From: a virus
Taxonomy: Duplodnaviria; Caudoviricetes
Length of the DNA stretch: 64,000 nucleotides
Direction: 5' to 3' (one strand)
IMG/VR virus record: IMGVR_UViG_2627853687_000001
Span: 1-64,000 of that record
A program made the position numbers and the translations under genes. Shown here piece by piece: positions 1,952 to 59,330 of the stretch (its first letter is position 1; each line of letters starts with the position of its first letter). The notes under the pieces were generated by a model that saw nothing but the letters and a program-made list of their open reading frames with translations, was not told where the DNA came from and made no database searches.

Positions 1952-2560
1952 TTACTGACTGAACGCGAATTGTGGCGCAGTGGCGCTGAAAGGTCCGCCA
2001 GACTGGAACACAATTTTTCCTCCAACTTTGATAGTCAGATCGCCACCAACGTCGATTACCAGGTTTCCCGGCCCCAGCAGGTAAATGTCCCCGCCTTCGT
2101 TCATCCCGACACGCGAACCGCTGGCCGTGTTGGCTATCTCATACCCGCCACCAGCAGACCGGATCTCCAGCAGGTTATTGCGGTGCGATACAAAATCCGT
2201 GGTCGGAGTCAGGGAAGGGCGCGCAGGCGCACCGTCAACGGCTGGTGGCTCATACCCGCCACCCTGTCCGGAGGCTTCAGGCGCGACGCTTGGGACGCCG
2301 CCCGGTGCCGACTGCGCCGCGCCGGTGATCAGCGGGCGCCGCGTATCCGGCTTCCCGCGGCCGTCTTTGTAAGGGAACTCCACCCAGACCTGATCACCCA
2401 CGATGCACGGTACAAACGTGTTGCCGATCGGCAGCTGATATTCCGCCCAGGGCAGAGTATCGGCGTCCACGTCCGCCCACTGCGGAGTAAGGCGGATCTG
2501 CGCCCGCATGTGTCCCTGCGGGTCTTTTGTCGCCGTGATAATGGCGCGCTGCTTACTCAC
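1952..2560 (-). CDS. Baseplate spike-like protein (P1 gp5-like)
   Basis: OB-fold-type N-terminus (DPQGHMRAQIR, LPWAE, VGDQVWVEF), beta-repeat C-terminus; P1 5-6-24-7-25-26 synteny. Confidence 0.7.
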   Translation of the reverse strand: MSKQRAIITATKDPQGHMRAQIRLTPQWADVDADTLPWAEYQLPIGNTFVPCIVGDQVWVEFPYKDGRGKPDTRRPLITGAAQSAPGGVPSVAPEASGQGGGYEPPAVDGAPARPSLTPTTDFVSHRNNLLEIRSAGGGYEIANTASGSRVGMNEGGDIYLLGPGNLVIDVGGDLTIKVGGKIVFQSGGPFSATAPQFAFSQ

Positions 2561-3546
2561 TTGTTGGGTACTCCTAAAATCATGCGCGTGGTATAGCCAA
2601 TGCGATCTTCGTGGTGAATGACCGCAATGGCGATAAAGTTTTTCGGTAACGTTTCGTCTACCTGGTTTTCCGCGTCATAGCGGTGGATCTGCACACCAAT
2701 AACCATGCCTGCTGTCAGGTCCGCATTGCCGCTGACTTCAATATCCAGCTTGGGGATCAGCACCCTCGCCATATTGGTCAGCGTGGCTACATCGGCGTCA
2801 GAAATGTACTTAACCGGCTTGGTGTTATCGCCCACGGCCACGTAACCCTCTGTCATGGAGTAGCCGACATACTGATAATCGCGGCTGCTGGTGGTGGCGG
2901 CGTCCTGGTTGATGTTGCTCATCTTGCTGATCGTGTATTCGGCCTGCGGGTTGTTGGCCTCATAGGTAAATGCCGCCTTTGTGCCGATCAGCTTTGCCAT
3001 GTCCTTCATGCAGAACTTCCCGCGAGCGCACCAGACCAGCGCGCCGTGATCGTCAGCAATCTGGCGCAGGACGCCGGACGGCTTCTCGCCCATATTCAGG
3101 TGATAGGTCATCGCTTTGCGGAAAGCATCAGCCTCAATCGTCATTTTGCCCGCGAACTCCGCCATGACGTCACCCGGCTGGCGGTCGGCATACAGGCGCA
3201 CGCGGGCTGATGGGGTTTTAAGACGCTTCAAATCCGCTGATACGGCTATGATCCGCACCACGTCACCGCTGGCGGGCGCCGACGTCACGAAAAACGTCTC
3301 TGTATACGCGCCGCGCTGCCCGGTCGGGTCGCCCAGCTCTGCCACCAGCACAGCGCCAAACCGTGCACCCATTTCATCCACCAGCTTTCCGGCAGGATCG
3401 TGCGCTTCCAGGACCAGCAACGGCGCAGTCAGCGACGTCTTCTCGATGTAAATCACAGACGTTATCCAGCTGCGCGGCATTTCCGCACCATTAAGCAGGA
3501 CCGACTGCAGGAAGTACTGCATAGGCTTATTCTGCTGATCAGCCAT
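2557..3546 (-). CDS. Tail/baseplate hub protein (P1 gp6-like)
   Basis: 329 aa, coupled to neighbours, gpD-like C-terminus (VSGNADLTAG...VIHH), synteny. Confidence 0.65.
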   Translation of the reverse strand: MADQQNKPMQYFLQSVLLNGAEMPRSWITSVIYIEKTSLTAPLLVLEAHDPAGKLVDEMGARFGAVLVAELGDPTGQRGAYTETFFVTSAPASGDVVRIIAVSADLKRLKTPSARVRLYADRQPGDVMAEFAGKMTIEADAFRKAMTYHLNMGEKPSGVLRQIADDHGALVWCARGKFCMKDMAKLIGTKAAFTYEANNPQAEYTISKMSNINQDAATTSSRDYQYVGYSMTEGYVAVGDNTKPVKYISDADVATLTNMARVLIPKLDIEVSGNADLTAGMVIGVQIHRYDAENQVDETLPKNFIAIAVIHHEDRIGYTTRMILGVPNK

Positions 3547-4316
3547 CAGTTGCCCCCCGGTGCCAGCTGGGTGTCATAGCGAACGTTGCGGGCATTAACC
3601 TCATGCGCGGTCAGCACATCCACCATGACAATCAGCGACGCCTGGCAGGCATAAATCCGATCCTGCGTGAACGGCGGCGACATATCGCTGAACATGATGG
3701 TTTTGGCATCCTGAATGCTGCAGTTGAGTTCTACAGGCCAGTGGACCAGCTTTTCCTGCGCGGTGAAGTTGGTGGTGAGCCTGGAGCGGAAGTTAGCGGC
3801 CAGCGTGTTGCACATCAGTGACAGCGTATCTTTGTCACTGGCAATCAGCGTGATGGAGTAATTGAGCGATGCCTGTGTAGCCTCAACCTCGGCCAGCGGC
3901 ATGTTGCCCTGTGACTCGTCGGTAATGTCGCCGTAATCACGGTCTATCTCCTGATCGTTGTTGTCGTAGGTGATATCAAACCCGCGTGACAGGTTAATCA
4001 GCGGCAGGGCGTCACGGTTTAGATCCGGCATTTCCAACGGCTTCACGCTGTGACGTCCGGCGCCCGCCACGCGAACGGCACGCAGAAAGTCCATGACGTC
4101 ATCAAACTTGCCGACGAATACGCGATCTTCCGGCTTTCGCGCCAGGAATGAGGCAAAGCGCTGCTCATGCTGGCGCGGTCCGGTCATTACGGCACTACTG
4201 AATACGTCATTCAGCGCCTTTGCTACGGCGGCATCGGCGGCGGTAAAGCCGGTACTCTCCACTTTGCCGGTGCGTGTTTTCACCCACTCGCGGGTGCGGG
4301 AAAGTAGCTGATTCAT
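3546..4316 (-). CDS. Tail/baseplate protein (P1 gp24-like)
   Basis: Size and position in the coupled operon. Confidence 0.55.
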   Translation of the reverse strand: MNQLLSRTREWVKTRTGKVESTGFTAADAAVAKALNDVFSSAVMTGPRQHEQRFASFLARKPEDRVFVGKFDDVMDFLRAVRVAGAGRHSVKPLEMPDLNRDALPLINLSRGFDITYDNNDQEIDRDYGDITDESQGNMPLAEVEATQASLNYSITLIASDKDTLSLMCNTLAANFRSRLTTNFTAQEKLVHWPVELNCSIQDAKTIMFSDMSPPFTQDRIYACQASLIVMVDVLTAHEVNARNVRYDTQLAPGGN

Positions 4317-14735: not shown

Positions 14736-14905
14736 TTTACTAATCACTTTCCCGCACTGAAAGTATCTTCTCTGCCGATCGGCTGGCCGTATTTCACGCC
14801 AGCCGGTCACAGTTAAGACAAACCGCCTATATCTAAACATTAAATTTAAAAAATCTTTAGAATGTCATAAACTGTTTTCTGAAATTGACCACTGGAAAAC
14901 TTAAT

Positions 14906-16678: not shown

Positions 16679-17359
16679 ATGAATACCTCTCCAATGACTG
16701 CCACCGCTGCGCTCCAGCACATGTCTTACACCCTGACCGGCGTAATTAAACAGAGTCAGAAGCCTGGCTTTAACGAGGCGGAAGCCTACGCAGATATCAA
16801 AACCAATTACGAGCTGGTGGCCACCAGCTGCACCGACTTGGCGACCGTTGTCTGGCTGCGTAATCACCTCTGCTTTGGTTACATTGGCGATGAACACACA
16901 TTTGAAGAGATCAACCTGGCCTACCGCGATCACATCGACTTCATTCTCAAATCAGGCTGGCGTCCAGGCGCTGCACCGGTGCACAGAATGACGCTCAGCA
17001 ATATGTTTGAGCTGGACTGGTGGAACCCTCAGCAGATCGTGGTAACTGCACACACTAAAGATATCGTTACCGGCACTGCCACCATGACCGACACAGAAGG
17101 CGAATATCAGTTCGCGTTTGAGTGGACAATGATCATGGGTGAAGAGGCCGAACAACACGATCTGCCGTTCATGGTAAACATAACGGCAGCACGGTTTACC
17201 CTGCCGTATGAGTTCAAACTGTTTGAAGATGAGGGAAGTCCGCTCGATGCGCTGACGGCGCTACAGGAACTGGATTGCGGTCTGGGCTTCTGTATTGAGT
17301 ATTTCCCTGATATTTACAAGCAATATGCTCCGACAGAAGGGGCAACTAACCGAGGCTAA
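16679..17359 (+). CDS. Hypothetical protein
   Basis: ATG 16679 with AAGGA RBS. Confidence 0.65.
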   Translation: MNTSPMTATAALQHMSYTLTGVIKQSQKPGFNEAEAYADIKTNYELVATSCTDLATVVWLRNHLCFGYIGDEHTFEEINLAYRDHIDFILKSGWRPGAAPVHRMTLSNMFELDWWNPQQIVVTAHTKDIVTGTATMTDTEGEYQFAFEWTMIMGEEAEQHDLPFMVNITAARFTLPYEFKLFEDEGSPLDALTALQELDCGLGFCIEYFPDIYKQYAPTEGATNRG

Positions 17360-17361
17360 TC

Positions 17362-17835
17362 ATGACCGATAAAGCACGCGATCCACGGGCTTTAAATTCA
17401 GTTAAAGGAGCCGCCCCTGCGACGGCTCAGATTCAGATGCGCGTCATTCCCGATGTTAAAAACCGCTATGTCGCGCAGGCGCAGCGGGAAGGGATGAAAC
17501 TGTCAGAGTGGATACAGCATCACCTCGACGCTGTTTGCCAGTCAGCCGATGAAAAATTGCGGCACTCTGGAAATTCGGCAGGGACCGATATGTGTTTCAG
17601 AATTTATAACCGTCGCGATGAGTCATGGAGGATGCAAGAAGCCAGCATAGGAAGTGTTGGCCTTAAGGTTCCCCGATATACCGGCGAAGAGTCACAGGCC
17701 GGATTCTTTTGGGCTGATGAAATTAAGCATTTAGACAAACTCGGTGCGCAGATGGCTATCCAGAGTTACGAGGAAGCTATTCCCTGCACACCAACCAGGG
17801 AAGAGATCCGCTTTCGTAACGAGTGGGATAACTAA
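17362..17835 (+). CDS. Protein with N-terminal ribbon-helix-helix-like domain
   Basis: AQIQMRVIPDVKNRYVAQAQREGMKLSEWI. Confidence 0.6.
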   Translation: MTDKARDPRALNSVKGAAPATAQIQMRVIPDVKNRYVAQAQREGMKLSEWIQHHLDAVCQSADEKLRHSGNSAGTDMCFRIYNRRDESWRMQEASIGSVGLKVPRYTGEESQAGFFWADEIKHLDKLGAQMAIQSYEEAIPCTPTREEIRFRNEWDN

Positions 17836-18175
17836 CCTGCGTGCCAGCTACAGGATACGAACACCAGTGATTAAACAGGAAATCAGGGCGCTGTTTCTGG
17901 CGCACGGCTTCGAAATGGAGCAACAGCCTGATGGCAGTACCGATTTAAACCCTGCCTGCTACAGCGTCGCTCAGGCGCTTGCAGAGCAGTTTGGCGATAT
18001 TTACGGGCAACCGGCTGGAAATGTGGAGATCGCCGCTGGTGCAGGCACAGAGGCGCGCACGATGGCGCTGTTTCACGATAAGGCGGCAAGCATTGAGTTT
18101 CCGACCTACATCATGCGCAAGCCTTCGCAAACTCCTGCACTGGCCACCAGCAAAAGTCCGGTATCCGGGCGCTGA
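17744..18175 (+). CDS. Hypothetical protein (start uncertain)
   Basis: IRALFLAHGF..QPDGSTDLNP, typical phage hypothetical; coupled to the next gene. Confidence 0.55.
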   Translation: MRRWLSRVTRKLFPAHQPGKRSAFVTSGITNLRASYRIRTPVIKQEIRALFLAHGFEMEQQPDGSTDLNPACYSVAQALAEQFGDIYGQPAGNVEIAAGAGTEARTMALFHDKAASIEFPTYIMRKPSQTPALATSKSPVSGR

Positions 18176-18537
18176 TGGACGACAGATTAAGTCAGTACGG
18201 CTGGCTCTCTTTTGAGGGCTGGCCGGACAGTGAAGTTCACGACTATCTCACGACGAAATGCGGCATCATCCACGCCCGTAAGTTACCCGATGGCAGCTGG
18301 ACAGGCCTTCTGCGCCTTCTGTACACGCTCAGCGTCTGCATGGGGATCACGCCAACGGATGTGTATCAGTATCGCTGGTGCTTCGAAGACCCGGAAGAGG
18401 CGGTGTATCTGTACAAAAATGCCATGGAAGTAGACGAGATACCGGAGCGCCGGGAGTCGCTGGTGGGCCACCGGCACACGACCGGAACCCCGCTTTATGT
18501 TGAGTTTGACCAGCTAGGTCTGCCAAAATGGCGTTGA
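18175..18537 (+). CDS. Hypothetical protein
   Basis: 120 aa, translationally coupled. Confidence 0.65.
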   Translation: MDDRLSQYGWLSFEGWPDSEVHDYLTTKCGIIHARKLPDGSWTGLLRLLYTLSVCMGITPTDVYQYRWCFEDPEEAVYLYKNAMEVDEIPERRESLVGHRHTTGTPLYVEFDQLGLPKWR

Positions 18538-18672
18538 GCGTCACAGTCATGCACATTTAAAAGTGGCATTCAACTAACGAATAAACTAATCAGAAAAATT
18601 CTATTAATCTACTGGCTCATATCTAGTTGGTAATAGATAAAATAACCAAAATATCAGCAATAAAAGGAAATT

Positions 18673-19605
18673 ATGCCTACATTATCTGAACGCAATTATG
18701 AAACCCCGAAGTCATGGGCTGAATTTGAATCAATTTGCAAAGACTCTTTTCAACTCCGTTGGTCAAACCCAGACCTTACAATGCACGGCAGGCAGGGACA
18801 GGCGCAGGACGGGGTTGATATCTACGGTAACAACTCATCTAATTTTTTTGTAGGCATTCAATGTAAAAATACAATAGATGGAATCAGTGAAAGTCTAATT
18901 GATTCTGAATGCAGCAAAGCAGAGAAATTTTCACCACTAATTAATATTCTTTACATAGCAACCACTGCTAAGCGAGATGTTCATATACAACGTTATGCGC
19001 GAAATTTGTCTGTCGATAGACGAGGTAAAGGTAAGTTTCCGGTTGAAATAGTTTTTTGGGAAGACGTTTGCTTAGACCTTGCTAGAGACCAAAGCGTGCT
19101 ACGCAAGCATTTTCCAGAGTATAATGTTAAGCCTACTAAGTCAGAACTGATGCGTGAAAAAGACTTAAGTAACCTTCAGTGCCTACTGTCTTTTTTTGAT
19201 GTAGTAAACACCCTTCAGCAATTGGAAACAGATGGGAAGTACATAGCAGAACCAATCAGAGCACAATATGAATACATTCACAATGTCATTACATCGCCTG
19301 TATTTAAATTAAATAATCCAGATATTGAACGAGATACGGCGGCTGTACTTAATGATTGGTATAAGCTAATGCTTATGCTAAATGATGCACCATATAGATA
19401 TAATGATGCTAACAGGTGTTTCATTTTCATAATGCCTGGAGACTTCTGTAGAACTCCAGAAGAGTCTGACCTTTTTGATAAAATAACAGCGCAAATGGCA
19501 GTTCTTAGAAATTCCATAGGTAATTTCTGCGATAACATAAACTCTAATTTTCATGAAATAGATTTAAACAAAACTAGCCTTCAGGCAAGAAGACTTTACG
19601 CCTGA
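18673..19605 (+). CDS. Restriction-endonuclease-like (Mrr-type PD-(D/E)xK) domain protein, candidate defence
   Basis: WAEFESIC...GRQGQAQDGVDIYG...GIQCK; low-GC stand-alone gene. Confidence 0.7.
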   Translation: MPTLSERNYETPKSWAEFESICKDSFQLRWSNPDLTMHGRQGQAQDGVDIYGNNSSNFFVGIQCKNTIDGISESLIDSECSKAEKFSPLINILYIATTAKRDVHIQRYARNLSVDRRGKGKFPVEIVFWEDVCLDLARDQSVLRKHFPEYNVKPTKSELMREKDLSNLQCLLSFFDVVNTLQQLETDGKYIAEPIRAQYEYIHNVITSPVFKLNNPDIERDTAAVLNDWYKLMLMLNDAPYRYNDANRCFIFIMPGDFCRTPEESDLFDKITAQMAVLRNSIGNFCDNINSNFHEIDLNKTSLQARRLYA

Positions 19606-19705
19606 TTCACAGAGAGTTTACTGTTCTAAATAATCTAACTTGACTGACCACCCGCTAAACAACTGATGGCCAGTTATCAATTTAAGCAATTCAGAACGAC
19701 AGAAA

Positions 19706-20149
19706 ATGGAAATCAGGATTAAATGCCCGCATTGCGGATCGGGAAGCGTCAAGAGCAGTAGGGCAGTCTATGAGCAGGGAACCTCAAACACGCGCAGCGT
19801 CAGCCACACAGGGTGGGTATCGAATCGCGGATCGGGTGGAAGTAGACGGCAGGGCAGATCAACGCGTCAGTCGGTTGCTGCTTCGCGTAATGCACCAGCT
19901 GGCGGAAAGCTGGAGGTGCTTACATTTGTCGGCTCTTTCCTCCTGTCTGCCTGGATGATACTCGATATACCGGCGACCACAGTACTGGGATCGGTAATTA
20001 CCGGAGCAGTTATCGCATTGCTGATAACAGTGCTGGTGGCTCACCTCAACCGCCATAACCGGCGCAGGGCGCGTGAGAGTTACAACAGGCAGTGGTATTG
20101 CAGTAAATGCGGCGACACGTTTTTACGCGATAACGTTGCCAGCTCATAG
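19706..20149 (+). CDS. Two-TM membrane protein with terminal CxxC pairs
   Basis: CPHC at the N-terminus, two hydrophobic helices, CSKC at the C-terminus. Confidence 0.65.
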   Translation: MEIRIKCPHCGSGSVKSSRAVYEQGTSNTRSVSHTGWVSNRGSGGSRRQGRSTRQSVAASRNAPAGGKLEVLTFVGSFLLSAWMILDIPATTVLGSVITGAVIALLITVLVAHLNRHNRRRARESYNRQWYCSKCGDTFLRDNVASS

Positions 20150-20328
20150 TCTGACGCGGCTGGTGGATGAGCTGGCAATTCCGTTCAGTACCGGTGCCAC
20201 CAGCCCGCAGAAATAACAGATCCACTAAACGCATGCGTTTCCCGCGCCTGCTGGCGGTTGCCCTAAGCCGCCAGCATCCCTAGAATGCGCGCTTCTTTAC
20301 GCTATACAGACGATTTTCAAACGGACTT

Positions 20329-21405
20329 ATGACACAACAACTTAAATCTATTCAGGCGCTTCGCGGGCTTGCCTGCCTCGCCGTCGTTACCTTTCATTTC
20401 CGCTACCAGATACAGGACCAGTACCCGGCATTAACCAAACTGCTTTCAACCGGCGTTGTTGGTGTGGATCTGTTTTTCATCCTCAGTGGCTTTGTTATCA
20501 CACTCTCTGTCTCGCGCATGGGTACTGGATTCGCTGCAGCAGGCGATTTCCTGAAGCGCCGTGCGCTGCGCCTGCTGCCTGCCTACTTCATTCTGCTGCT
20601 GATCAACTTTTTCTTAAGCGGTGGAATGGCGACGTTTCACTATGCTGAGAAGACGCAGGCGGTGATTAGCGCGGCGACGCTATCCGTTTACCTGCCGCAG
20701 CACGCGCCGTTTTACGTGGACGACAACGGGTTTATGGGCGTGCGCTGGACGCTCAACTACGAGTTTCTGTTTTACCTGATGATGGCTGTCTGCCTGCTGG
20801 TGCGCGCACGCTGGGTGGCGCTGGCCGCAATGCTGGGCGCGGTGCTTGTGGCAGTACCGATGGCAGCAGGCCACCAGCCGACGCTGCTGGTAGAAGGATA
20901 TGACCTGGGCTACGCCTACCTGAACCTGATGACGAACCCGATTATCTGGCAGTTCGCTGCAGGCGTACTGATTGGTCTGGTTTACCCACACATGGCGCGC
21001 CTGCCGGTTGCCGTGCGGGTGCCGTTCCTGCTGGCTGCAGTTGCACTGTTTGTGCAGCACATTATCAGCTACCAGCATATAGGTCATGGCATGATGGCGT
21101 CTGGTACTGTACTGGCACTGCTGCTGGCCGCTGTGGCGTTTAACGACAGCTGGTTAGGGCGCATCACGCCGCGTTGGTTGGTGTTGCTGGGGGATATTTC
21201 TTTCTCTGTATATCTGATCCATATCGTGACCAAAGCCCGGTTAGCAAAAGCATTCACGGACCAGGGCATGACGTTCTTCGTGTGTAACGTCCTGCTAGCG
21301 CTGCTGCTGGGCTGGCTCAGCTACCGTTATATTGAGCCAATCGGACAGAAGATTGCGCGCCGACACAGAGAGAAAGTGCTTCGTAACGCAAGCAACGACG
21401 CATAG
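20329..21405 (+). CDS. Acyltransferase family 3 (OafA/Oac-like O-acetyltransferase)
   Basis: IQALRGLA, GVDLFFILSGFVI, RRALRLLPAY, WTLNYEFLFY, LGDISFSVYLIH, SYRYIE. Confidence 0.9.
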   Translation: MTQQLKSIQALRGLACLAVVTFHFRYQIQDQYPALTKLLSTGVVGVDLFFILSGFVITLSVSRMGTGFAAAGDFLKRRALRLLPAYFILLLINFFLSGGMATFHYAEKTQAVISAATLSVYLPQHAPFYVDDNGFMGVRWTLNYEFLFYLMMAVCLLVRARWVALAAMLGAVLVAVPMAAGHQPTLLVEGYDLGYAYLNLMTNPIIWQFAAGVLIGLVYPHMARLPVAVRVPFLLAAVALFVQHIISYQHIGHGMMASGTVLALLLAAVAFNDSWLGRITPRWLVLLGDISFSVYLIHIVTKARLAKAFTDQGMTFFVCNVLLALLLGWLSYRYIEPIGQKIARRHREKVLRNASNDA

Positions 21406-32088: not shown

Positions 32089-33168
32089 ATGCCTAACTTC
32101 AGCGATGTAGAATTTGAGAAGCGTTATAAACATTTTCTACAGGTACAAAAAGAGTGGCTGACTCTCATCACGGACAACCAGATTTTTAGCGATAGAAACT
32201 CCCTGGGTGAAGAATGCCGCCCGATTGGCTTTATCACTGACAAGAAAGCCTTTAAGCGTGCCGAGCACCTGCTGGCTGACTGGCAGAGCTTTGCAGACCT
32301 GGCAGAAGAAAAGCGCAAAGAGCGCTCTATCGCGATCACCACGAACCTCTATCTGCCGGTTCCTGTACTGATCACCAATCCAAAGCACGTCACTATTAAC
32401 CGCTTCCGTGCAACGGCCACCGCGAACCACACCCGCGAAGATATCCTTAAGCGTTATGAGAAGCAGATAAACAAGCTGCGTAAAGTTCCTTTTGCTGCCG
32501 GTGCAATCATGTCGCTGGAAGATGAAATGAAAGGGATTGAAGCTGCAGCGCCAGGCGCAATGTACCGCGCACGCACTAGCAACTATTCTGATATCCAAGT
32601 AACAGCGCGCTATACCGATGATAAGAAAGATGAAGGTGAATCTTTCCGCTATGGCGCACATGGGATGCTGATTTACGGCGACAAGCTGGATAAAGAGCGC
32701 GATATCAAGCTGAACGTTACGAGTAACGGTAATTACACGTCGCCATACGATGCTATCTCACCCGTACCATGTTCAATCCTGCCTAATGCCAAGCTGTACA
32801 CCATGGAAGACGTGGAATATAGCAAGGTGCTGGCCGCGCAGCGTTCCTCAGTGGCGTACACCGTAAACACACGCCGTGCTCAGTTTGAGAACAGGGCAAA
32901 GGCTAAGATTGCGAAGGCAAAAGACGCAGCGGAAGCGCGTCTGTTTAAAGCTGAAATCGAAGAAAACCGCGATTTGCTGGAGAAGCTGGAAGCCTACGAC
33001 TGGGCGCTCCTGGATAAGAAGGTAGCCGCTGGTGATACAGAACAGTTGACGATGCCTGAAATCCGTAAGCGTTACGGCGGAGAAGAGCCTCGCGCCGGAA
33101 AGAATATGCGTAACATGTACAGCCTGCTGCGTGAACTGGAAAGTAACCTGAAAAATCAGGACAAATAA
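32089..33168 (+). CDS. c1: Primary repressor, P1 C1-like
   Basis: CRPIGF, LYLPVPVL, YRARTSNYSD, SPYDAISPVPC..LPNAKLY resemble P1 C1; divergent from cre and convergent with pacB as in P1. Confidence 0.8.
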   Translation: MPNFSDVEFEKRYKHFLQVQKEWLTLITDNQIFSDRNSLGEECRPIGFITDKKAFKRAEHLLADWQSFADLAEEKRKERSIAITTNLYLPVPVLITNPKHVTINRFRATATANHTREDILKRYEKQINKLRKVPFAAGAIMSLEDEMKGIEAAAPGAMYRARTSNYSDIQVTARYTDDKKDEGESFRYGAHGMLIYGDKLDKERDIKLNVTSNGNYTSPYDAISPVPCSILPNAKLYTMEDVEYSKVLAAQRSSVAYTVNTRRAQFENRAKAKIAKAKDAAEARLFKAEIEENRDLLEKLEAYDWALLDKKVAAGDTEQLTMPEIRKRYGGEEPRAGKNMRNMYSLLRELESNLKNQDK

Positions 33169-38748: not shown

Positions 38749-39099
38749 TTACCATGTCACGTGCGAGCGTCTGAATAATGCCGTCGTAGTGCTGTTTTGG
38801 CGCAGCTTCCCCGTCGTCACCCACGAAAACCAGCCCCATAGCCGTACACCTTTGGTGATATCCACGCTGTAAGCAAATCTGGGAGTTGATTCGAAGTGCG
38901 CCACCAGCTGTTCTGCACGCCATGCGAAGCACACGCCACAGATTTTGCTGAGCTCAAGCGTCACTGTGCCGCCAACGAGCATAGTTGAGGTTTCGGAACC
39001 TGCGCAGGAATTACTGTGTTTGCATGAGATTGACGTGATTTTGCAGTTATCAGCACGCCAGGCCAGCTGAGCCAGCCAGATAATTTTCTGCATTTCCAT
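38749..39099 (-). CDS. Hypothetical protein
   Basis: Coupled to the upstream ORF. Confidence 0.45.
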   Translation of the reverse strand: MEMQKIIWLAQLAWRADNCKITSISCKHSNSCAGSETSTMLVGGTVTLELSKICGVCFAWRAEQLVAHFESTPRFAYSVDITKGVRLWGWFSWVTTGKLRQNSTTTALFRRSHVTW

Positions 39100-39683
39100 T
39101 ACACCAGCTTCCAGTCGTTTGCGAGAATATCGGTAGAAGCCGGCGCCCAGTCAGAGACGGTCAGCTGTTCTGCATCAATGAGTAGCAGCTGGGGCATCTG
39201 CGTGACAGTAGCCTCCGGGTTGCAGTCAAAGTAACGAGCCGGTACGCCGTACATGTCTGTCCCGTTCAGTGTGGCGCGCATCATGCCTCTGCTGAGGCGC
39301 AGATATACACCCTTCCCCCACGCTGCCCGCGCTACCTTGCAGCCCTCTGACAGCCATAACTGCGCCACGGCCAACGGTGCGTGCTCCTGCCTGAAATTCA
39401 GTTCGCCGGTATTAATCATCGCTTCGTTGCGCAAGATCAGATCGTTGAGCTTAATCAGCGCAACACAGGCGGCGTGGTTCAGTGTTTCGCCATGACCGGT
39501 CATTGTCAGGCCGCTTTTACTAATAATGGCTGCATAACCGTCATTTTTGGTCTCAGACGTATCTGTAATGGTATATCCGAGGCGTTCAATCACGGCCAGG
39601 AGTGCCATGTAGTCGCCTGCATAGTCGGCTTCTGCATCTGCAATCATGCCGATGGTTGCGTTTAACTGTTGAGCGGTCATCAT
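39099..39683 (-). CDS. DUF2829/Tad2-like domain protein with N-terminal extension
   Basis: GCKVARAAWGKGVYL...WAPASTDILANDWKLV. Confidence 0.75.
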   Translation of the reverse strand: MMTAQQLNATIGMIADAEADYAGDYMALLAVIERLGYTITDTSETKNDGYAAIISKSGLTMTGHGETLNHAACVALIKLNDLILRNEAMINTGELNFRQEHAPLAVAQLWLSEGCKVARAAWGKGVYLRLSRGMMRATLNGTDMYGVPARYFDCNPEATVTQMPQLLLIDAEQLTVSDWAPASTDILANDWKLV

Positions 39684-41471: not shown

Positions 41472-41535
41472 TGGTGCAGGTTGGCGGAATTGAACCGCCG
41501 ACAATGGAACACTCTACCGACTGAGCTAAACCTGC
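41472..41535 (-). tRNA. tRNA-like gene lacking the anticodon arm (64 nt, CCA end)
   Basis: GCAGGTT-TA-GCTCAGTCGGTAGAGT-GTTCCATTGTC-GGCGG TTCAATT CCGCC-AACCTGC-A-CCA. Confidence 0.75.
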
Positions 41536-43401: not shown

Positions 43402-43698
43402 TTAGAACAGTTTTAACGCCGCTATGACTAGGGCGGCTACAGTGACAATCATCACAACATTCAACAGTACAGACGGCACTTTGATCTCGCCGGTCTCATA
43501 CTCTGCCTGCGTCATGCGGCCCAGGTAACTGTGCGAGACCAGCACTGCGTTTTCGTCAAAGCTCAGCGTAACCCGGACATTCTCCAGCACCTGACGGGAT
43601 ACCTGTCGCGTGGCCAGCTGGACCACACCGGATCGCATTTTGCCGTTGTCGCCCATGTAACAGACCGAATGGTAATGAAATGGCTTATTCAGGCCCAT
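43402..43698 (-). CDS. Hypothetical protein with C-terminal TM anchor
   Basis: SHSYLGRMTQAEYE; hydrophobic C-terminus. Confidence 0.65.
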   Translation of the reverse strand: MGLNKPFHYHSVCYMGDNGKMRSGVVQLATRQVSRQVLENVRVTLSFDENAVLVSHSYLGRMTQAEYETGEIKVPSVLLNVVMIVTVAALVIAALKLF

Positions 43699-44216
43699 CA
43701 GCTGATAACTACCCAGTCACAGACGCGCATATCTTCAATGCTCATATCATGCATTTCTGTAGTGCCGTCCGGATGAGTCAGTTCCAGCACGTCACAGCCT
43801 TCATGCTCCTGCTCCAGCGACACAAAATAACCCGGCTTCCACGCTTCACGACGCATCAGCAAAGCCGGATCTTCTTTCATTTTCAGCAAGGCCTGGTCAT
43901 AGCTGCACGCAATGGCACCGATACCAATTTTGCTCAAAGATTCGATCTGTGCCGTAGTCATGCGTCCGCGTCCTTCTGTTAATGATTTTCTCAAGATGTA
44001 GCTAATCCCCTTCACGCCGCCGAAATAGTTCAGCTGGCGGTTGCTCATGCCGCTGCGCGTCATAAGCTCCTGCTTAGGTACTTTAAAAATGCCGACTTCC
44101 ATAGCCATGTCGGCAAAAACCGAAAGCCCCCGGCCTAAGCTGTCGCGCGTTTTATTGCGGCGCGCATACTGCTCAAACGTGGGGCATCCGGTAAAAAATT
44201 GCGCATCAAAAAGCAC
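43698..44216 (-). CDS. Protein with C-terminal DUF2829/Tad2-like domain
   Basis: SYDQALLKMK...MRREAWKPGYFV...MSIEDMRVCDWVVI. Confidence 0.6.
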   Translation of the reverse strand: MLFDAQFFTGCPTFEQYARRNKTRDSLGRGLSVFADMAMEVGIFKVPKQELMTRSGMSNRQLNYFGGVKGISYILRKSLTEGRGRMTTAQIESLSKIGIGAIACSYDQALLKMKEDPALLMRREAWKPGYFVSLEQEHEGCDVLELTHPDGTTEMHDMSIEDMRVCDWVVIS

Positions 44217-54819: not shown

Positions 54820-55128
54820 TCAGCTTATTTTCTTTTCCGGCTTCGTGGCCTGTTTTGATAAAAGAAACACGTCTGATCTATTCGCCATTATATCGGGCTT
54901 ATTGGCACAGAGAGGACATGCCCTGACACCCGTGTAATTTATCCTTGCTACGCTAAGCACCTGATTTAACGTGTAGCAGCTGCTGATAAAAGCACGGTCC
55001 CATTCAGCGGGCAGCTGCGGACAGTCAAGCCGGTGCAACAGTAACCCGCTGTTAGCGTGGTCATTAACGTATAATTTCATGGCCTTATACATGCCATATC
55101 CTATTGCTGTGTGTGACAAAATCACCAT
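54820..55128 (-). CDS. Hypothetical protein (H/C metal-binding-like)
   Basis: LLHRLDCPQLP...ACPLC. Confidence 0.55.
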   Translation of the reverse strand: MVILSHTAIGYGMYKAMKLYVNDHANSGLLLHRLDCPQLPAEWDRAFISSCYTLNQVLSVARINYTGVRACPLCANKPDIMANRSDVFLLSKQATKPEKKIS

Positions 55129-55691: not shown

Positions 55692-56171
55692 CTAATTAGG
55701 CCAGTCATAAACAAAGTGCTGCACGGCCACGGCTTTCAGACCACTTTTAATTTTAACGACCTGCTGCGGTCCGGGCTGCTGCTCAGCAATGGCAAGTTTC
55801 ATTATGGCTGCGGCAGGCTTAACGGCTGGCATCTTATCTGATTCACATTTTCGTGCCGCTATCGCCGGCGCTTTCTTTACTGTGGGCGCAGGCCTCTTTG
55901 CCTGTTCGGCAACGGGCTTATTGCTGAGGTTTGCAAACTGCTCTTCACGGGCATCAGTCTTTTCGGGGTTTTGTTTTTGCAAACAGACCGGACAGCGCTC
56001 TGTATTTTTATGATGCACAACAGCTACGGTCATTGCCTGCTGAGACGTATACAGGGTGCCGATAAATATCCGGCTTTCAGGGGACTTCGGGAGCAGATGA
56101 CAGCTTTCGCGGTGCAGCAGCGTGCCACTTTCATAATGAAATGCGACATAATATTTCTTTGCTTTTAACAT
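55692..56171 (-). CDS. Hypothetical protein, paralogous motif to 54820..55128
   Basis: LLHRESCHLLP...FIGTLYT...RCPVC. Confidence 0.6.
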   Translation of the reverse strand: MLKAKKYYVAFHYESGTLLHRESCHLLPKSPESRIFIGTLYTSQQAMTVAVVHHKNTERCPVCLQKQNPEKTDAREEQFANLSNKPVAEQAKRPAPTVKKAPAIAARKCESDKMPAVKPAAAIMKLAIAEQQPGPQQVVKIKSGLKAVAVQHFVYDWPN

Positions 56172-56397: not shown

Positions 56398-56655
56398 TCA
56401 GTGTAGCAGAGAAATTACCTGCCAGTCTGAGGAAAGAATATCGTCAGGCGTGGGATCGTAAAAGAATAGCGCGCCGGATTCGCCCATGATGACAAATATC
56501 ATCTGTCTGTCAGCGTCGTTTTGGGTAAATACGTGAACGGGAGTGCGGCCCCATTTTGCACGACGGCAGATAGCACTTTCAGTCTGACTGATGGCAGTCA
56601 TAGCGCGGTCAAAACGTAATGTCGCCGGGGATGGCGTGTCGGGGGTATCAGTCAT
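56398..56655 (-). CDS. Stand-alone DUF2829/Tad2-like protein
   Basis: FDRAM...CRRAKWG...YDPTPDDILSSDWQVI; AAGGAG RBS. Confidence 0.7.
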   Translation of the reverse strand: MTDTPDTPSPATLRFDRAMTAISQTESAICRRAKWGRTPVHVFTQNDADRQMIFVIMGESGALFFYDPTPDDILSSDWQVISLLH

Positions 56656-56709
56656 GAAATGCTCCTTGTGCGAAAAGAAGCGTCACTACAGGAGGTTCCA
56701 ATCTCCGGG

Positions 56710-56788
56710 TGGTGACGTTGACAGGGTTGGAACTACCGGTGCACAAGAAAACCGGCCTACCCGAAGGTAGCCCCACCAACGCCACCAT
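56710..56788 (-). ncRNA. c4: c4 antisense RNA
   Basis: Three-stem junction: TGGTGGCGTTGGTGGGG/CCCTGTCAACGTCACCA, CTACC-TTCG-GGTAG, CCGG-loop a'-CCGG, b' GTTCCAA; flanked by a1b1 and a2b2 targets. Confidence 0.85.
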
Positions 56789-57085
56789 AGATACGCCCGG
56801 AATAATCCGGACGTGGTAGCGCCGAAGGCACTATGTGCCAGTTCTCATGCTTTTACAGGGTTCCAAGCCTGGCCGCTGAATCTCTTCTGCGGCGCGCACA
56901 CTATATCTGCCGTGCTGATAAATTCAATATGTCTCATGTGAAATTAACCACTGGTCATTAGATCCAGACGAGATTAAAGAATCGCTAACCCCATAAATTA
57001 CAACCTTTCTACCATCCCACCGTGCAGGCAATCGCCAGCGCTGCCGCCGCTTTTCGGGGCATCCCAACGAATTTAAGAGGAAGTT

Positions 57086-58436: not shown

Positions 58437-59330
58437 GTGTCTATAGTAGCTAATAGCGCCGATCCCGGCAACACTTTTCCCGCATATCGCTCAAATAACG
58501 AGCACAGATCTATCCGAATTTCCGGCTTCAATCTCACTCACATAATCGAACTTTCCCCACTACCAAAATCACTTACACGCGTTTTGAAATTTGCCTGCAA
58601 CCTGGCTGGTTCAACATCTGACTTCATCATCGTTAAGTCACTCAGAAATCTGGCTGAAGATGCGGGGTGCAGTATCTCTACCGTTCAGCGCGCTTATCGC
58701 TTAGCCGTCAAGCTGGGTATCCTCAGCTATGAAGAACAGCGAGACGCTAAAAATCATAGCGTCAGCAAGCCCAGTAAATACAAATTCACCAGCAAAGCGC
58801 TGTCGTTTGTTCGTGCAAGTCTGGATGCACTGAAAGAAGCCAATCTGGAGCCTTCCGGACGTCAAACTATTGTCAGGAAAGTTGTTGCTAAAGTATTCTT
58901 TAAAAACGATTTTTTTCACGTCATCCCTAGTCAAAATGAACAGGCCACCCCTGGTCAAAGTGACCAACAAGAAGTAAGAGATCACTCCAGTAAAAGAAAA
59001 ATATTAAATGTGGAACCATCAAATTCTGACACGCTGGAAATGACTACAGACAAGCCTGAGACGTCAGCACCTGCTAAAAAGTTTGGTTTTTATCAGAATA
59101 CACAGAAGCAATTGGCAGCCGCATCGTCAGCTGCACAGAGCGAACGTCGCGCAGAAGAATTTCAGCGCAAAGGCGGAATACTGCATGAAGCGTATCAGGC
59201 GTTGAAGTCCAGTTTTAAAACTAAGTCCACTGGTGATCGAAGCCCAAAAAGCCGCCGCTATGTTGACTCGTTAAGCGGCGACTACTCAAACGTTGACTAT
59301 GCGATCCCTGAAGGCTGGCGCGGCTGTTAG
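58437..59330 (+). CDS. repL: Lytic replication initiator RepL
   Basis: NLAGSTSDFII.K..R.LAEDAGCSISTVQRAYR.AVKLGIL HTH; ends YAIPEGWRG like P1 RepL. Confidence 0.85.
   Translation: MSIVANSADPGNTFPAYRSNNEHRSIRISGFNLTHIIELSPLPKSLTRVLKFACNLAGSTSDFIIVKSLRNLAEDAGCSISTVQRAYRLAVKLGILSYEEQRDAKNHSVSKPSKYKFTSKALSFVRASLDALKEANLEPSGRQTIVRKVVAKVFFKNDFFHVIPSQNEQATPGQSDQQEVRDHSSKRKILNVEPSNSDTLEMTTDKPETSAPAKKFGFYQNTQKQLAAASSAAQSERRAEEFQRKGGILHEAYQALKSSFKTKSTGDRSPKSRRYVDSLSGDYSNVDYAIPEGWRGC

Follow-up and report, generated by a model that had tools for sequence, protein, structure and literature searches.

A c4-type antisense RNA switch ahead of a predicted Tad2-fold gene in a putative P1/D6-type phage-plasmid of Pantoea

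The virus record IMGVR_UViG_2627853687_000001 carries, on the minus strand, a complete c4-type antisense RNA switch placed directly ahead of a gene for an 85-amino-acid protein with a predicted Tad2 fold. The DNA analyzed here, referred to as the window, is the first 64 kb of this 92,860-bp record, and counts given for the genome refer to the whole 92.9 kb. The c4 RNA very probably pairs with the ribosome-binding site (RBS) of the 85-amino-acid open reading frame (ORF) and blocks its translation, as P1 c4 does for icd according to the annotation of the P1 record and the available portions of two articles (PMC8201110, PMC8546580). We hold with moderate confidence that the locus, about 530 bp in all, is an immunity-I (immI)-type switch reduced to c4 and a Tad2-fold protein, and that this protein is an anti-defence sponge for nucleotide signals. 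Sequence analysis and comparisons of related loci support the RNA, the geometry of its pairing and the co-variation between its partners, as well as the predicted fold of the protein and purifying selection on its gene. The elements of the locus, named as in P1 (b', hairpin loop; a', 3' single strand), are the following:

56938..56954, minus strand, putative operator of a C1-like repressor, CCAGTGGTTAATTTC, 10 bp upstream of the -35 hexamer
56900..56927, minus strand, sigma-70-like promoter of the c4 operon, TTGAAT-16-TATAGT, with 9/12 consensus matches
56860..56866, minus strand, upstream target a1, TTGGAAC, complementary to the 3' single strand of c4
56842..56850, minus strand, upstream target b1, GCATGAGAA, complementary to the hairpin loop of c4
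56705..56792, minus strand, c4 antisense RNA, given as the extent of the Rfam RF01695 match
56740..56751, minus strand, b' recognition loop of c4, UUUUCUUGUGCA, two positions of which co-vary with b2
56727..56733, minus strand, a' single-stranded element of c4, GUUCCAA, the complement of TTGGAAC
56695..56701, minus strand, downstream target a2, TTGGAAC, 3 nt past the Rfam match
56662..56671, minus strand, downstream target b2, GCACAAGGAG, which includes the Shine-Dalgarno sequence AAGGAG of the ORF
56398..56655, minus strand, 85-amino-acid ORF with a predicted Tad2 fold (PF11195, AlphaFold2 model), the sole protein gene directly behind c4

A first-pass annotation, made from the letters of the sequence alone, had described a complete c4 switch at this locus, and promoter, target sites, c4, RBS and ORF were all found where it had placed them on the minus strand. 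The Rfam C4 search confirmed the RNA with a score of 84.2 bits against a gathering score of 45 (E 4e-15, model positions 1-87 of 87), and this is the single C4 copy in the genome. The a and b labels of the annotation, by contrast, had been swapped relative to the P1 record; in P1 naming the order reads a1-b1-c4-a2-b2-ORF, identical to that of P1. The sequence fits the consensus structure of the family, i.e., a long closing stem around two hairpins, which leaves one large loop and the 3' single strand free. In P1, processing of the leader releases a c4 RNA of about 77 nt, which acts in trans as a repressor; by analogy with this 77-nt RNA, mature c4 is probably shorter here than the Rfam match by a few nt at each end. 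A 46-amino-acid ORF lying over the RNA (window 56648-56788, minus strand; 4026-4166 in locus L003) is annotated as an "ash family protein" in CP060164, very likely a false protein prediction over an RNA gene.

The recognition loop of c4 is complementary to the start region of the ORF. In the window, GCACAAGGA (56671-56663) overlaps the Shine-Dalgarno sequence AAGGAG (56667-56662), itself 6 nt ahead of the ATG at 56655, and the duplex between the loop and b2 comprises 9-10 pairs with an energy of -13.8 kcal/mol (z -5.3 relative to shuffled targets), ending 5 nt before the AUG. Because b2 is the RBS of the ORF, this pairing would block translation. At the upstream site, b1 and the loop form nine pairs, two of them G-U (RNAduplex, -10.9 kcal/mol), and both a sites match a' perfectly (7/7 pairs). 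TTGGAAC is found four times in the 64-kb window, versus 7.8 copies expected, and three of these four lie at this locus, as the two targets and the complement within c4. Both promoter hexamers are invariant among the 17 distinct relatives described below; the overall scan for the promoter consensus gave five sites versus 4.6 in shuffles, hence no excess.

These relatives derive from 33 upstream regions (the window, 29 homologous loci and three plasmids), which were reduced to 17 distinct sequences and aligned. The nine-pair b'/b2 helix is paired in 98.7% of the cells of this alignment, a1 is invariant and 100% paired with a', and a2 is paired with a' in 98.3% of cells; as a control, sliding the partners by 1-3 columns lowered the pairing of the whole structure to 32-50%. 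Compensatory substitutions in both partners affect two of the nine b'/b2 pairs, each of them in five sequences. Two classes of loop can be distinguished: type I, UUUUCUUGUGC(A/G), pairs with a b2 of the form GCACA(A/G)GGAG, and type II, UCUCCUCGUACG, matches both its b2 and its b1, each of which reads GUACGAGGAG. Cognate loop:b2 duplexes reach -13.4 to -14.1 kcal/mol for type I and -18.2 to -18.3 kcal/mol for type II, versus -7.5 to -8.6 kcal/mol for a type II loop on a type I b2 and -11.5 kcal/mol for a type I loop on a type II target; the type II b1 pairs with its own loop at -19.2 to -19.3 kcal/mol. The loop variants number at least four, each with a matching b2, and the distant alleles L042, L062 and L063 carry further variants, each of them fitting the b2 located on its own Shine-Dalgarno sequence.

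The comparison was extended to a wider set of homologous loci. The locus search used a 5-sequence alignment, a 12-sequence one being too diverse; together, the window and 38 loci provide 39 sequences that amount to 15 distinct loop/target combinations, many loci being redundant. Twelve combinations, corresponding to the 34 of 39 sequences with an intact ORF, give duplexes of -13.4 to -18.3 kcal/mol (z -3.5 to -7.1), and in all 12 the duplex covers the Shine-Dalgarno sequence and ends 5-8 nt before the AUG. For the remaining three combinations (five loci), whose ORFs are broken, an internal ATG served as the reference for scoring. Rfam places C4 some 50 nt ahead of the ORF in 38 of the 39 homologue loci examined, many of them redundant (20/20, 15/16 and 3/3); the sole locus without it is a weak 35% match in an Anaerolineales contig. 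The leader and c4 stay 84-97% identical while identity of the protein drops to 31-38% (84-88% for the RNA region in those divergent alleles), which makes the ORF the fast-moving part of a fixed cassette. As judged from its sequence comparisons, the ORF is nonetheless under purifying selection, with a median ratio of nonsynonymous to synonymous substitution rates (dN/dS) of 0.13 over 52 pairs (range 0.07-0.22). Relative to L011, the ORF has a dS of 0.71 and the adjacent leader and c4 are 97% identical, a contrast that points to exchange of the cassette at the RBS or, alternatively, to a very strong constraint on the RNA part.

The N-terminus of the ORF is broken in five of the 39 sequences, owing to a frameshift near codon 10 (L026, L027 and L038) or to a stop at codon 10 (L032 and L033). 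In all five, the Tad2 domain is still open from an internal Met and c4 is kept. Among the distinct upstream sequences, only that of L038, one of these five, has a loop that fails to fit its b2, and the b1 of L033, which bears the nonsense codon, does not match its loop. Gene decay and pairing decay thus go together, and these exceptions fit the switch model. Both L038 and L033 look recombinant around c4.

As to the protein, the annotation had proposed a Tad2-like gene in place of icd and ant, and this was borne out. The ORF passes the Pfam threshold of the Tad2-like family PF11195 (27.6 bits for a cut-off of 25; E 4.4e-6; residues 15-81 on profile positions 3-73), while no homologue of icd or ant and no ANT domain was found in the genome. 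A word-based search returned nine clusters of homologues, all of them 85- or 67-amino-acid proteins; the five with a source name are from Pantoea, and three of these five are named "Thoeris anti-defense Tad2 family protein" by NCBI. A profile search of 1.84 billion representatives gave 22 proteins at E <= 0.001, nine of which, long proteins with short repeated stretches, were set aside. So few matches in a collection of that size point to a small, divergent subfamily. Residues A18, C30, R31, R32, W35, H41, G61, P68, D77 and W78 are invariant in a 22-sequence alignment of the subfamily. The AlphaFold2 model (predicted local distance difference test, pLDDT, 88.8; predicted template modelling score, pTM, 0.75) consists of a helix (residues 10-24), five strands and a short helix (70-73). 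When it was compared with the PDB using Foldseek, all 13 matches at E <= 0.001 were Tad2, as was every listed match up to E 0.02, the next one standing at E 0.23; the Tad2 structures concerned were those of SPO1, Myroides ModTad2, SptTad2 and HgmTad2/AcrIIA7 (probability 1.00, TM 0.61-0.76). A Tad2 fold is hence predicted for this protein. It shows no real similarity to P1 Icd (BLASTP E 0.089 over 14 residues; no match by tblastn of Icd against the genome), so that it is not the Icd-like protein lacking a Tad2 fold that would have contradicted the annotation.

The likeness to characterized Tad2 proteins (SPO1 gp34.65, ModTad2, SptTad2 and HgmTad2/AcrIIA7) includes the predicted fold with its N-terminal helix, the R..W and P-S/T-x-x-D motifs, the terminal DW, and equivalents of W25 and D79. 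In SPO1 Tad2, the ligand is contacted by W25, N26, I63, T65, D67, H71, W73, S76, T78 and D79 according to the accessible part of the Yirmiya preprint. In the hhalign alignment (probability 72%), about five of these 10 positions are retained, either kept or conservatively replaced, namely W25 as W35, I63 as I56, W73 as Y66, S76 as T69 and D79 as D72; the position of W73 is Tyr or Phe in the subfamily, and the pocket Trp and Asp are invariant in it or nearly so. In contrast to this likeness, sequence identity to the characterized proteins is 11-20%, the alpha2 loop is missing, and five of the 10 ligand-contact positions are altered.

The immI operon of phages P1 and P7 provides the reference layout, Oc4 - P51a/b - a1/b1 - c4 - a2/b2 - icd - ant1/ant2. 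P1 c4 belongs to the same RNA family and scores 68.8 bits, compared with 84.2 here, and the gaps between sites are similar (here versus P1, 9 and 7 nt between a1 and b1, 23 and 22 nt between a2 and b2, 7 and 10 nt between b2 and the ATG). In both cases b2 lies on the RBS of the first ORF and an operator-like site stands beside the promoter. However, c4 is followed in P1 by icd and ant, whereas the sole ORF here is the one with the predicted Tad2 fold, and P1, unlike this genome, is without a PF11195 domain. In addition, immI is located between sim and kilA-repL in P1, and between prt and pro, near a repL homologue, here. P1 prt (17312-19021) and pro (19014-20033) overlap and their homologues are 2.4 kb apart in the window, so that the annotation was right in placing the block between two genes that are adjacent in P1. 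The block is nevertheless better not regarded as the insertion of a foreign anti-defence gene, since one c4 operon of phage D6 also adjoins repL and pro. Here, pro is flanked by the c4 block and by the repL homologue (58437-59330, 30% identity, on the other strand). That c4 adjoins repL-pro in both D6 and this genome indicates an immunity-I neighbourhood of the lineage rather than a random insertion, and the locus is, as far as sequence comparison goes, the P1 immunity-I slot reduced to c4 and a Tad2-fold gene.

D6 (MF356679) itself has two complete C4 RNAs, behind each of which stand icd and a Rha-domain gene of antirepressor type; a further C4 match of 40.2 bits, below the threshold, lies close to the second of them. 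Its two c4 operons, orf19-orf18-orf17 (19789-21049) and orf83-orf82 (74022-75320), resemble the present one in that each ends in a compact module weakly similar to the ORF family (hhalign probabilities of 58% and 71%, E ~1e-4 and 4e-5), i.e., orf17 (65 amino acids, an overlapping gene) and the last 64 residues of orf82 (a C-terminal fusion). The CRR..W and terminal DW.V motifs are common to these modules and to the ORF family. In D6, though, icd and the Rha-domain protein precede the module, which stands alone behind c4 here, and the D6 modules are below the Pfam threshold of PF11195, which the ORF passes. Two PF11195 domains are present elsewhere in D6, far from c4. Taken at the level of sequence, these comparisons suggest that the Tad2-fold module may be an old part of this type of c4 operon, left here as its only protein; the operon of the Pantoea phages, in which nothing but the module follows c4, appears to be its minimal form.

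We infer RNA processing, expression timing, ligand binding and an anti-defence role as follows. One promoter (56927..56900) would give rise to a transcript comprising the decoys a1/b1, c4, the targets a2/b2 and the ORF. As in P1, c4 would be excised from this transcript, and its b' and a' elements would then pair with b2 and a2. Once c4 has accumulated in a lysogen, it would keep the protein off, probably together with the C1-like repressor bound at the promoter-adjacent site, and the same silencing would apply to the protein of incoming relatives with the same loop type. Production of the protein would be restricted to situations where c4 is absent or outrun, which, from P1 biology, would be entry into a naive cell. 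The protein would most likely bind a nucleotide-type immune signal of the host, as does Tad2, which takes up gcADPR or cyclic nucleotides as a homotetramer and thereby counteracts Thoeris, CBASS or Pycsar; it would thus act as an anti-defence sponge. Silencing the sponge in the lysogen would avoid disarming the signalling defences of the host or tripping sponge-detecting defences. A review reports that co-expression of Tad2 homologues with Panoptes lowers colony formation (PMC13712596). Constitutive expression of a sponge would accordingly carry a cost, and its silencing in lysogens makes sense. What favours a sponge is the predicted fold, the retained Trp/Asp core, the rapid turnover of alleles and, in relatives, the presence of variable defence-type cargo nearby.

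Several observations weigh against this reading. On the RNA side, the three c4 helices are 99.7-100% paired in the 17 sequences with nearly all pairs invariant, and so bring no co-variation support of their own. The b1 helix, when read on fixed columns, is only 81% paired and not above controls; an offset of about one column in the type II b1 sites accounts for this, and duplex energies computed for each sequence resolve it. As for expression, two RNA-seq runs carrying the same species label have no read of the locus and hence do not test its expression, and a phyllosphere metatranscriptome has two 151-nt contigs of depth 2 over 56609-56885, which could be DNA. A further RNA run contains short diverged pieces in the region of the 159-amino-acid ORF only (see below). 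On the protein side, the PF11195 threshold is passed narrowly. A PDB search with the single sequence gave chance ankyrin matches and no Tad2, the same search with a profile reached Tad2 weakly (E 0.013-0.055), and the hhalign probability of 72% between the ORF family and SPO1 Tad2 is weak. In that 72% alignment, five contacts are changed (N26 to G36, T65 to G58, D67 to S60, H71 to F64 and T78 to D71), and a 16-residue gap faces SPO1 residues 43-58, so that the beta2-beta3/alpha2 dimer loop is missing. In the accessible part of the Yirmiya preprint, this beta2-beta3 loop with helix alpha2 is described as forming the V-shaped dimer of the Tad2 tetramer. The genome also encodes two other proteins ending in a Tad2-like domain (PF11195), neither of them near c4:

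39099-39683, minus strand, 194-amino-acid protein ending in a Tad2-like domain (43.5 bits)
43698-44216, minus strand, 172-amino-acid protein ending in a Tad2-like domain (25.3 bits)

With these two domains, canonical sponge function may already be covered. Moreover, signal-based defences are sparse in Pantoea, CD-NTase genes and ThsB-TIR genes being each present in 5 of 75 Pantoea species genomes, and the homologous slot of D6 is occupied by antirepressor-type proteins together with a weakly similar module, either as a fusion or as a coupled gene.

This last observation leads to a tentative alternative, which we regard as possible although distinctly less probable, whereby the Tad2-fold protein would be the immunity-I effector itself, either an antirepressor or an essential cofactor inactivating the C1-like repressor, with c4 in the same role as in P1, where it prevents induction in lysogens. 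Instead of acting as a sponge, the recruited Tad2 fold would then bind a protein or work as a ligand-gated switch. The position of the ORF, in the place of icd and ant behind a c4 of P1-like geometry, with an operator-like motif by the promoter, is consistent with such a role, as is the gene content: the genome has a C1 homologue (32116-32826, 21% identity, E 2e-9), and neither ant, kilA and coi (tblastn) nor ANT, Rha and Bro-N domains were found in its 92.9 kb. That the c4-icd operons of D6 encode Rha-domain proteins with the weakly similar module fused or overlapping also points to a lysis-lysogeny switch, and the loss of the dimer loop and of about half of the Tad2 ligand contacts is also consistent with it. 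The loop/target classes recall the heteroimmunity of the pair P1 and P7; they fit sponge and antirepressor alike, however, because a resident c4 silences whatever a relative encodes behind the same loop, and are thus equally expected if the silenced gene is the anti-defence gene of an incoming relative. On the other hand, no known antirepressor has this fold, and a literature search combining DUF2829 and antirepressor gave nothing relevant by title. The pocket Trp and Asp of Tad2 are, as said, invariant or nearly so in the subfamily. Finally, the tail of the 172-amino-acid protein has the compact form and is as close to the ORF family as anything compared (hhalign 87%); since this protein is outside c4 control, the module is not specific to immunity operons.

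A combination of both roles, in which the protein would be an antirepressor gated by a host immune nucleotide (from Thoeris, CBASS or Pycsar) and inactivating the C1-like repressor, appears unlikely. If true, the lysis-lysogeny switch would read an immune alarm of the host, and c4 would silence the sensor in stable lysogens.

We give still less credit to a type I toxin-antitoxin (TA)-like or Icd-like module, in which the protein would harm or arrest the host, for instance at cell division, with c4 as the RNA antidote, thereby stabilizing the plasmid prophage or slowing division at infection. Antisense control of translation is a hallmark of type I TA systems, and the gene stands at the position of icd, a cell-division inhibitor in P1. 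RefSeq labels the pEuc3 homologue and two homologues from P. agglomerans as "MW1434 family type I TA system toxin". This label is an outdated prediction: one paper lists MW1434 among predicted type I toxins and, in its accessible portions, describes no experiment on it, NCBIfam release 20 has no match for the ORF or its neighbours, and NCBI names homologues as Tad2 family. The absence of similarity to Icd in the BLASTP and tblastn comparisons above, and the model of a soluble alpha/beta protein without the hydrophobic helix typical of type I toxins, argue in the same direction. Retention of c4 in the five sequences with a frameshift or stop near codon 10 is also a poor fit to an addiction module.

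It is highly improbable that the RBS complementarity is inherited scaffolding with no present function, c4 acting elsewhere or on nothing and the ORF being expressed independently: the c4 region is, admittedly, mostly conserved with few varying pairs, but compensatory changes affect two b'/b2 pairs, the loop and b2 vary together in at least four variants, C4 remains upstream in 38 of 39 homologue loci despite divergence of the ORF to 31% identity, and the genome has a single C4 and the window no other TTGGAAC target cluster.

Returning to the sponge, its regulation would parallel that of anti-CRISPR operons and their Aca repressors. The shared logic is that an anti-defence gene acts early in infection and a dedicated regulator from its own operon turns it off thereafter or in the lysogen; Aca is a DNA-binding protein acting on transcription, whereas a processed antisense RNA would act on the RBS here. 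Among phage-plasmids, 93% of the D6 type and 56% of the P1 type have DefenseFinder "Tad2 AcrIIA7" matches according to a preprint whose accessible text makes no mention of antisense control. A search for Tad2 genes under antisense-RNA control gave no report about phage Tad2 among the matches listed, and none of the matches listed linked the c4 switch to Tad2 or to an anti-defence sponge, subscription journals and supplements lying largely outside this search. Anti-defence sponges and the c4 switch are each known already; we found no report of their combination, which is apparently new. The locus represents either an anti-defence gene silenced by an RNA or an antirepressor of a new kind. In the first case, a processed antisense RNA with matched specificity classes would hold off an anti-defence gene, so that the counter-defence of incoming relatives could be silenced by a resident prophage; in the second, a Tad2 fold would be at the heart of a lysis-lysogeny switch. 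The small size of the locus and its natural loop/target variants, which constitute ready-made swap controls, make it well suited to reporter fusions.

The site next to the c4 promoter belongs to an asymmetric motif of 13-15 nt, AGTGGTnnATTnC / CCAGTGGTnnATTTC, with six sites in the genome versus 0.21 expected from shuffles; this was one candidate tested against shuffles after a mostly noisy k-mer scan. The six sites of CCAGTGGTnnATT(T/A)C, at 14893(-), 29471(+), 36254(-), 43317(-), 56952(-) and 85977(-), are all preceded by CC. The motif is probably the operator of the C1-like repressor, and its position at the c4 promoter resembles that of Oc4 in P1. A role as late-promoter box was considered and rejected, as P1 late promoters carry AAGTGACT-type boxes unlike the motif.

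The c4 block lies in a genome with many P1-like genes. Homologues of 52 P1 proteins were sought by tblastn, with matches at 21-53% identity that include cre, ref, mat, ulx, darB, prt, pro, repL, repA, hrdC and dmt, as well as lpa, pacA/B, c1, gp23, bplB, darA and others; no match was obtained in the genome with icd, ant1, kilA, coi, lxc, parA/B, ban, lyz or phd/doc. The closest annotated records are 87-95-kb non-mobilizable plasmids, five from Pantoea and one labelled Acinetobacter venetianus, and the Pantoea plasmid pEuc3 is 87% identical over the locus. From this set of P1 homologues and the Pantoea plasmid relatives, the window is, on sequence grounds, a distant P1/D6-type phage-plasmid of Pantoea. 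L002 (Pantoea sp. PSNIH1, CP009882) and L003 ("Acinetobacter venetianus", CP060164) do not differ in the span or identity of their match to the window, and have in common a c4 loop/target combination and a replicon cluster; the Acinetobacter host label of L003 may be a mis-assignment or a contamination.

Two ORFs of 159 (55692-56171, minus strand) and 102 amino acids (54820-55128, minus strand) are located between the Tad2-like ORF and prt. They are paralogous (36% identity over 94 residues, E 3e-16), with a common N-terminal domain ending in CPxC, and neither has a match in Pfam, PHROG, NCBIfam or PADLOC; an Atlas search with the 159-amino-acid ORF returned unnamed clusters below 0.9 only. 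PADLOC likewise gave no match for the 85-amino-acid ORF and the two other Tad2-like proteins. The presence of the two ORFs varies among relatives, both being absent from L004 and one each being found in L001 and L002. More generally, the slot downstream of the Tad2-like gene holds variable cargo in relatives, including a PtuA-like Septu ATPase: in L042 (2862-4397, plus strand) and L063 (1455-2891, plus strand), a 511-amino-acid PtuA-like (Septu / PDC-M01A) ATPase (PADLOC E 2e-172) is encoded by the next same-strand gene downstream of the divergent Tad2-like alleles, i.e., a defence-type gene in the variable slot.

A near-identity search of the locus in phages gave no match, and tblastn of the 85-amino-acid ORF gave none in 50,697 phage records; the sole matches of a distant phage search were C4-like stretches in phiP27 and in a Citrobacter phage. 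In phiP27 (L041), a C4 RNA (84 bits, 2523-2610, minus strand) lies beside an isrK-family RNA (63 bits, 2635-2711, minus strand), near two Ant genes, and both RNAs are located under a coding sequence annotated as "transcriptional regulator". Elsewhere in the window, a tRNA gene (41475-41535, minus strand) was recognized by Rfam with 49 bits, its variable and anticodon region being unusually short in the alignment.

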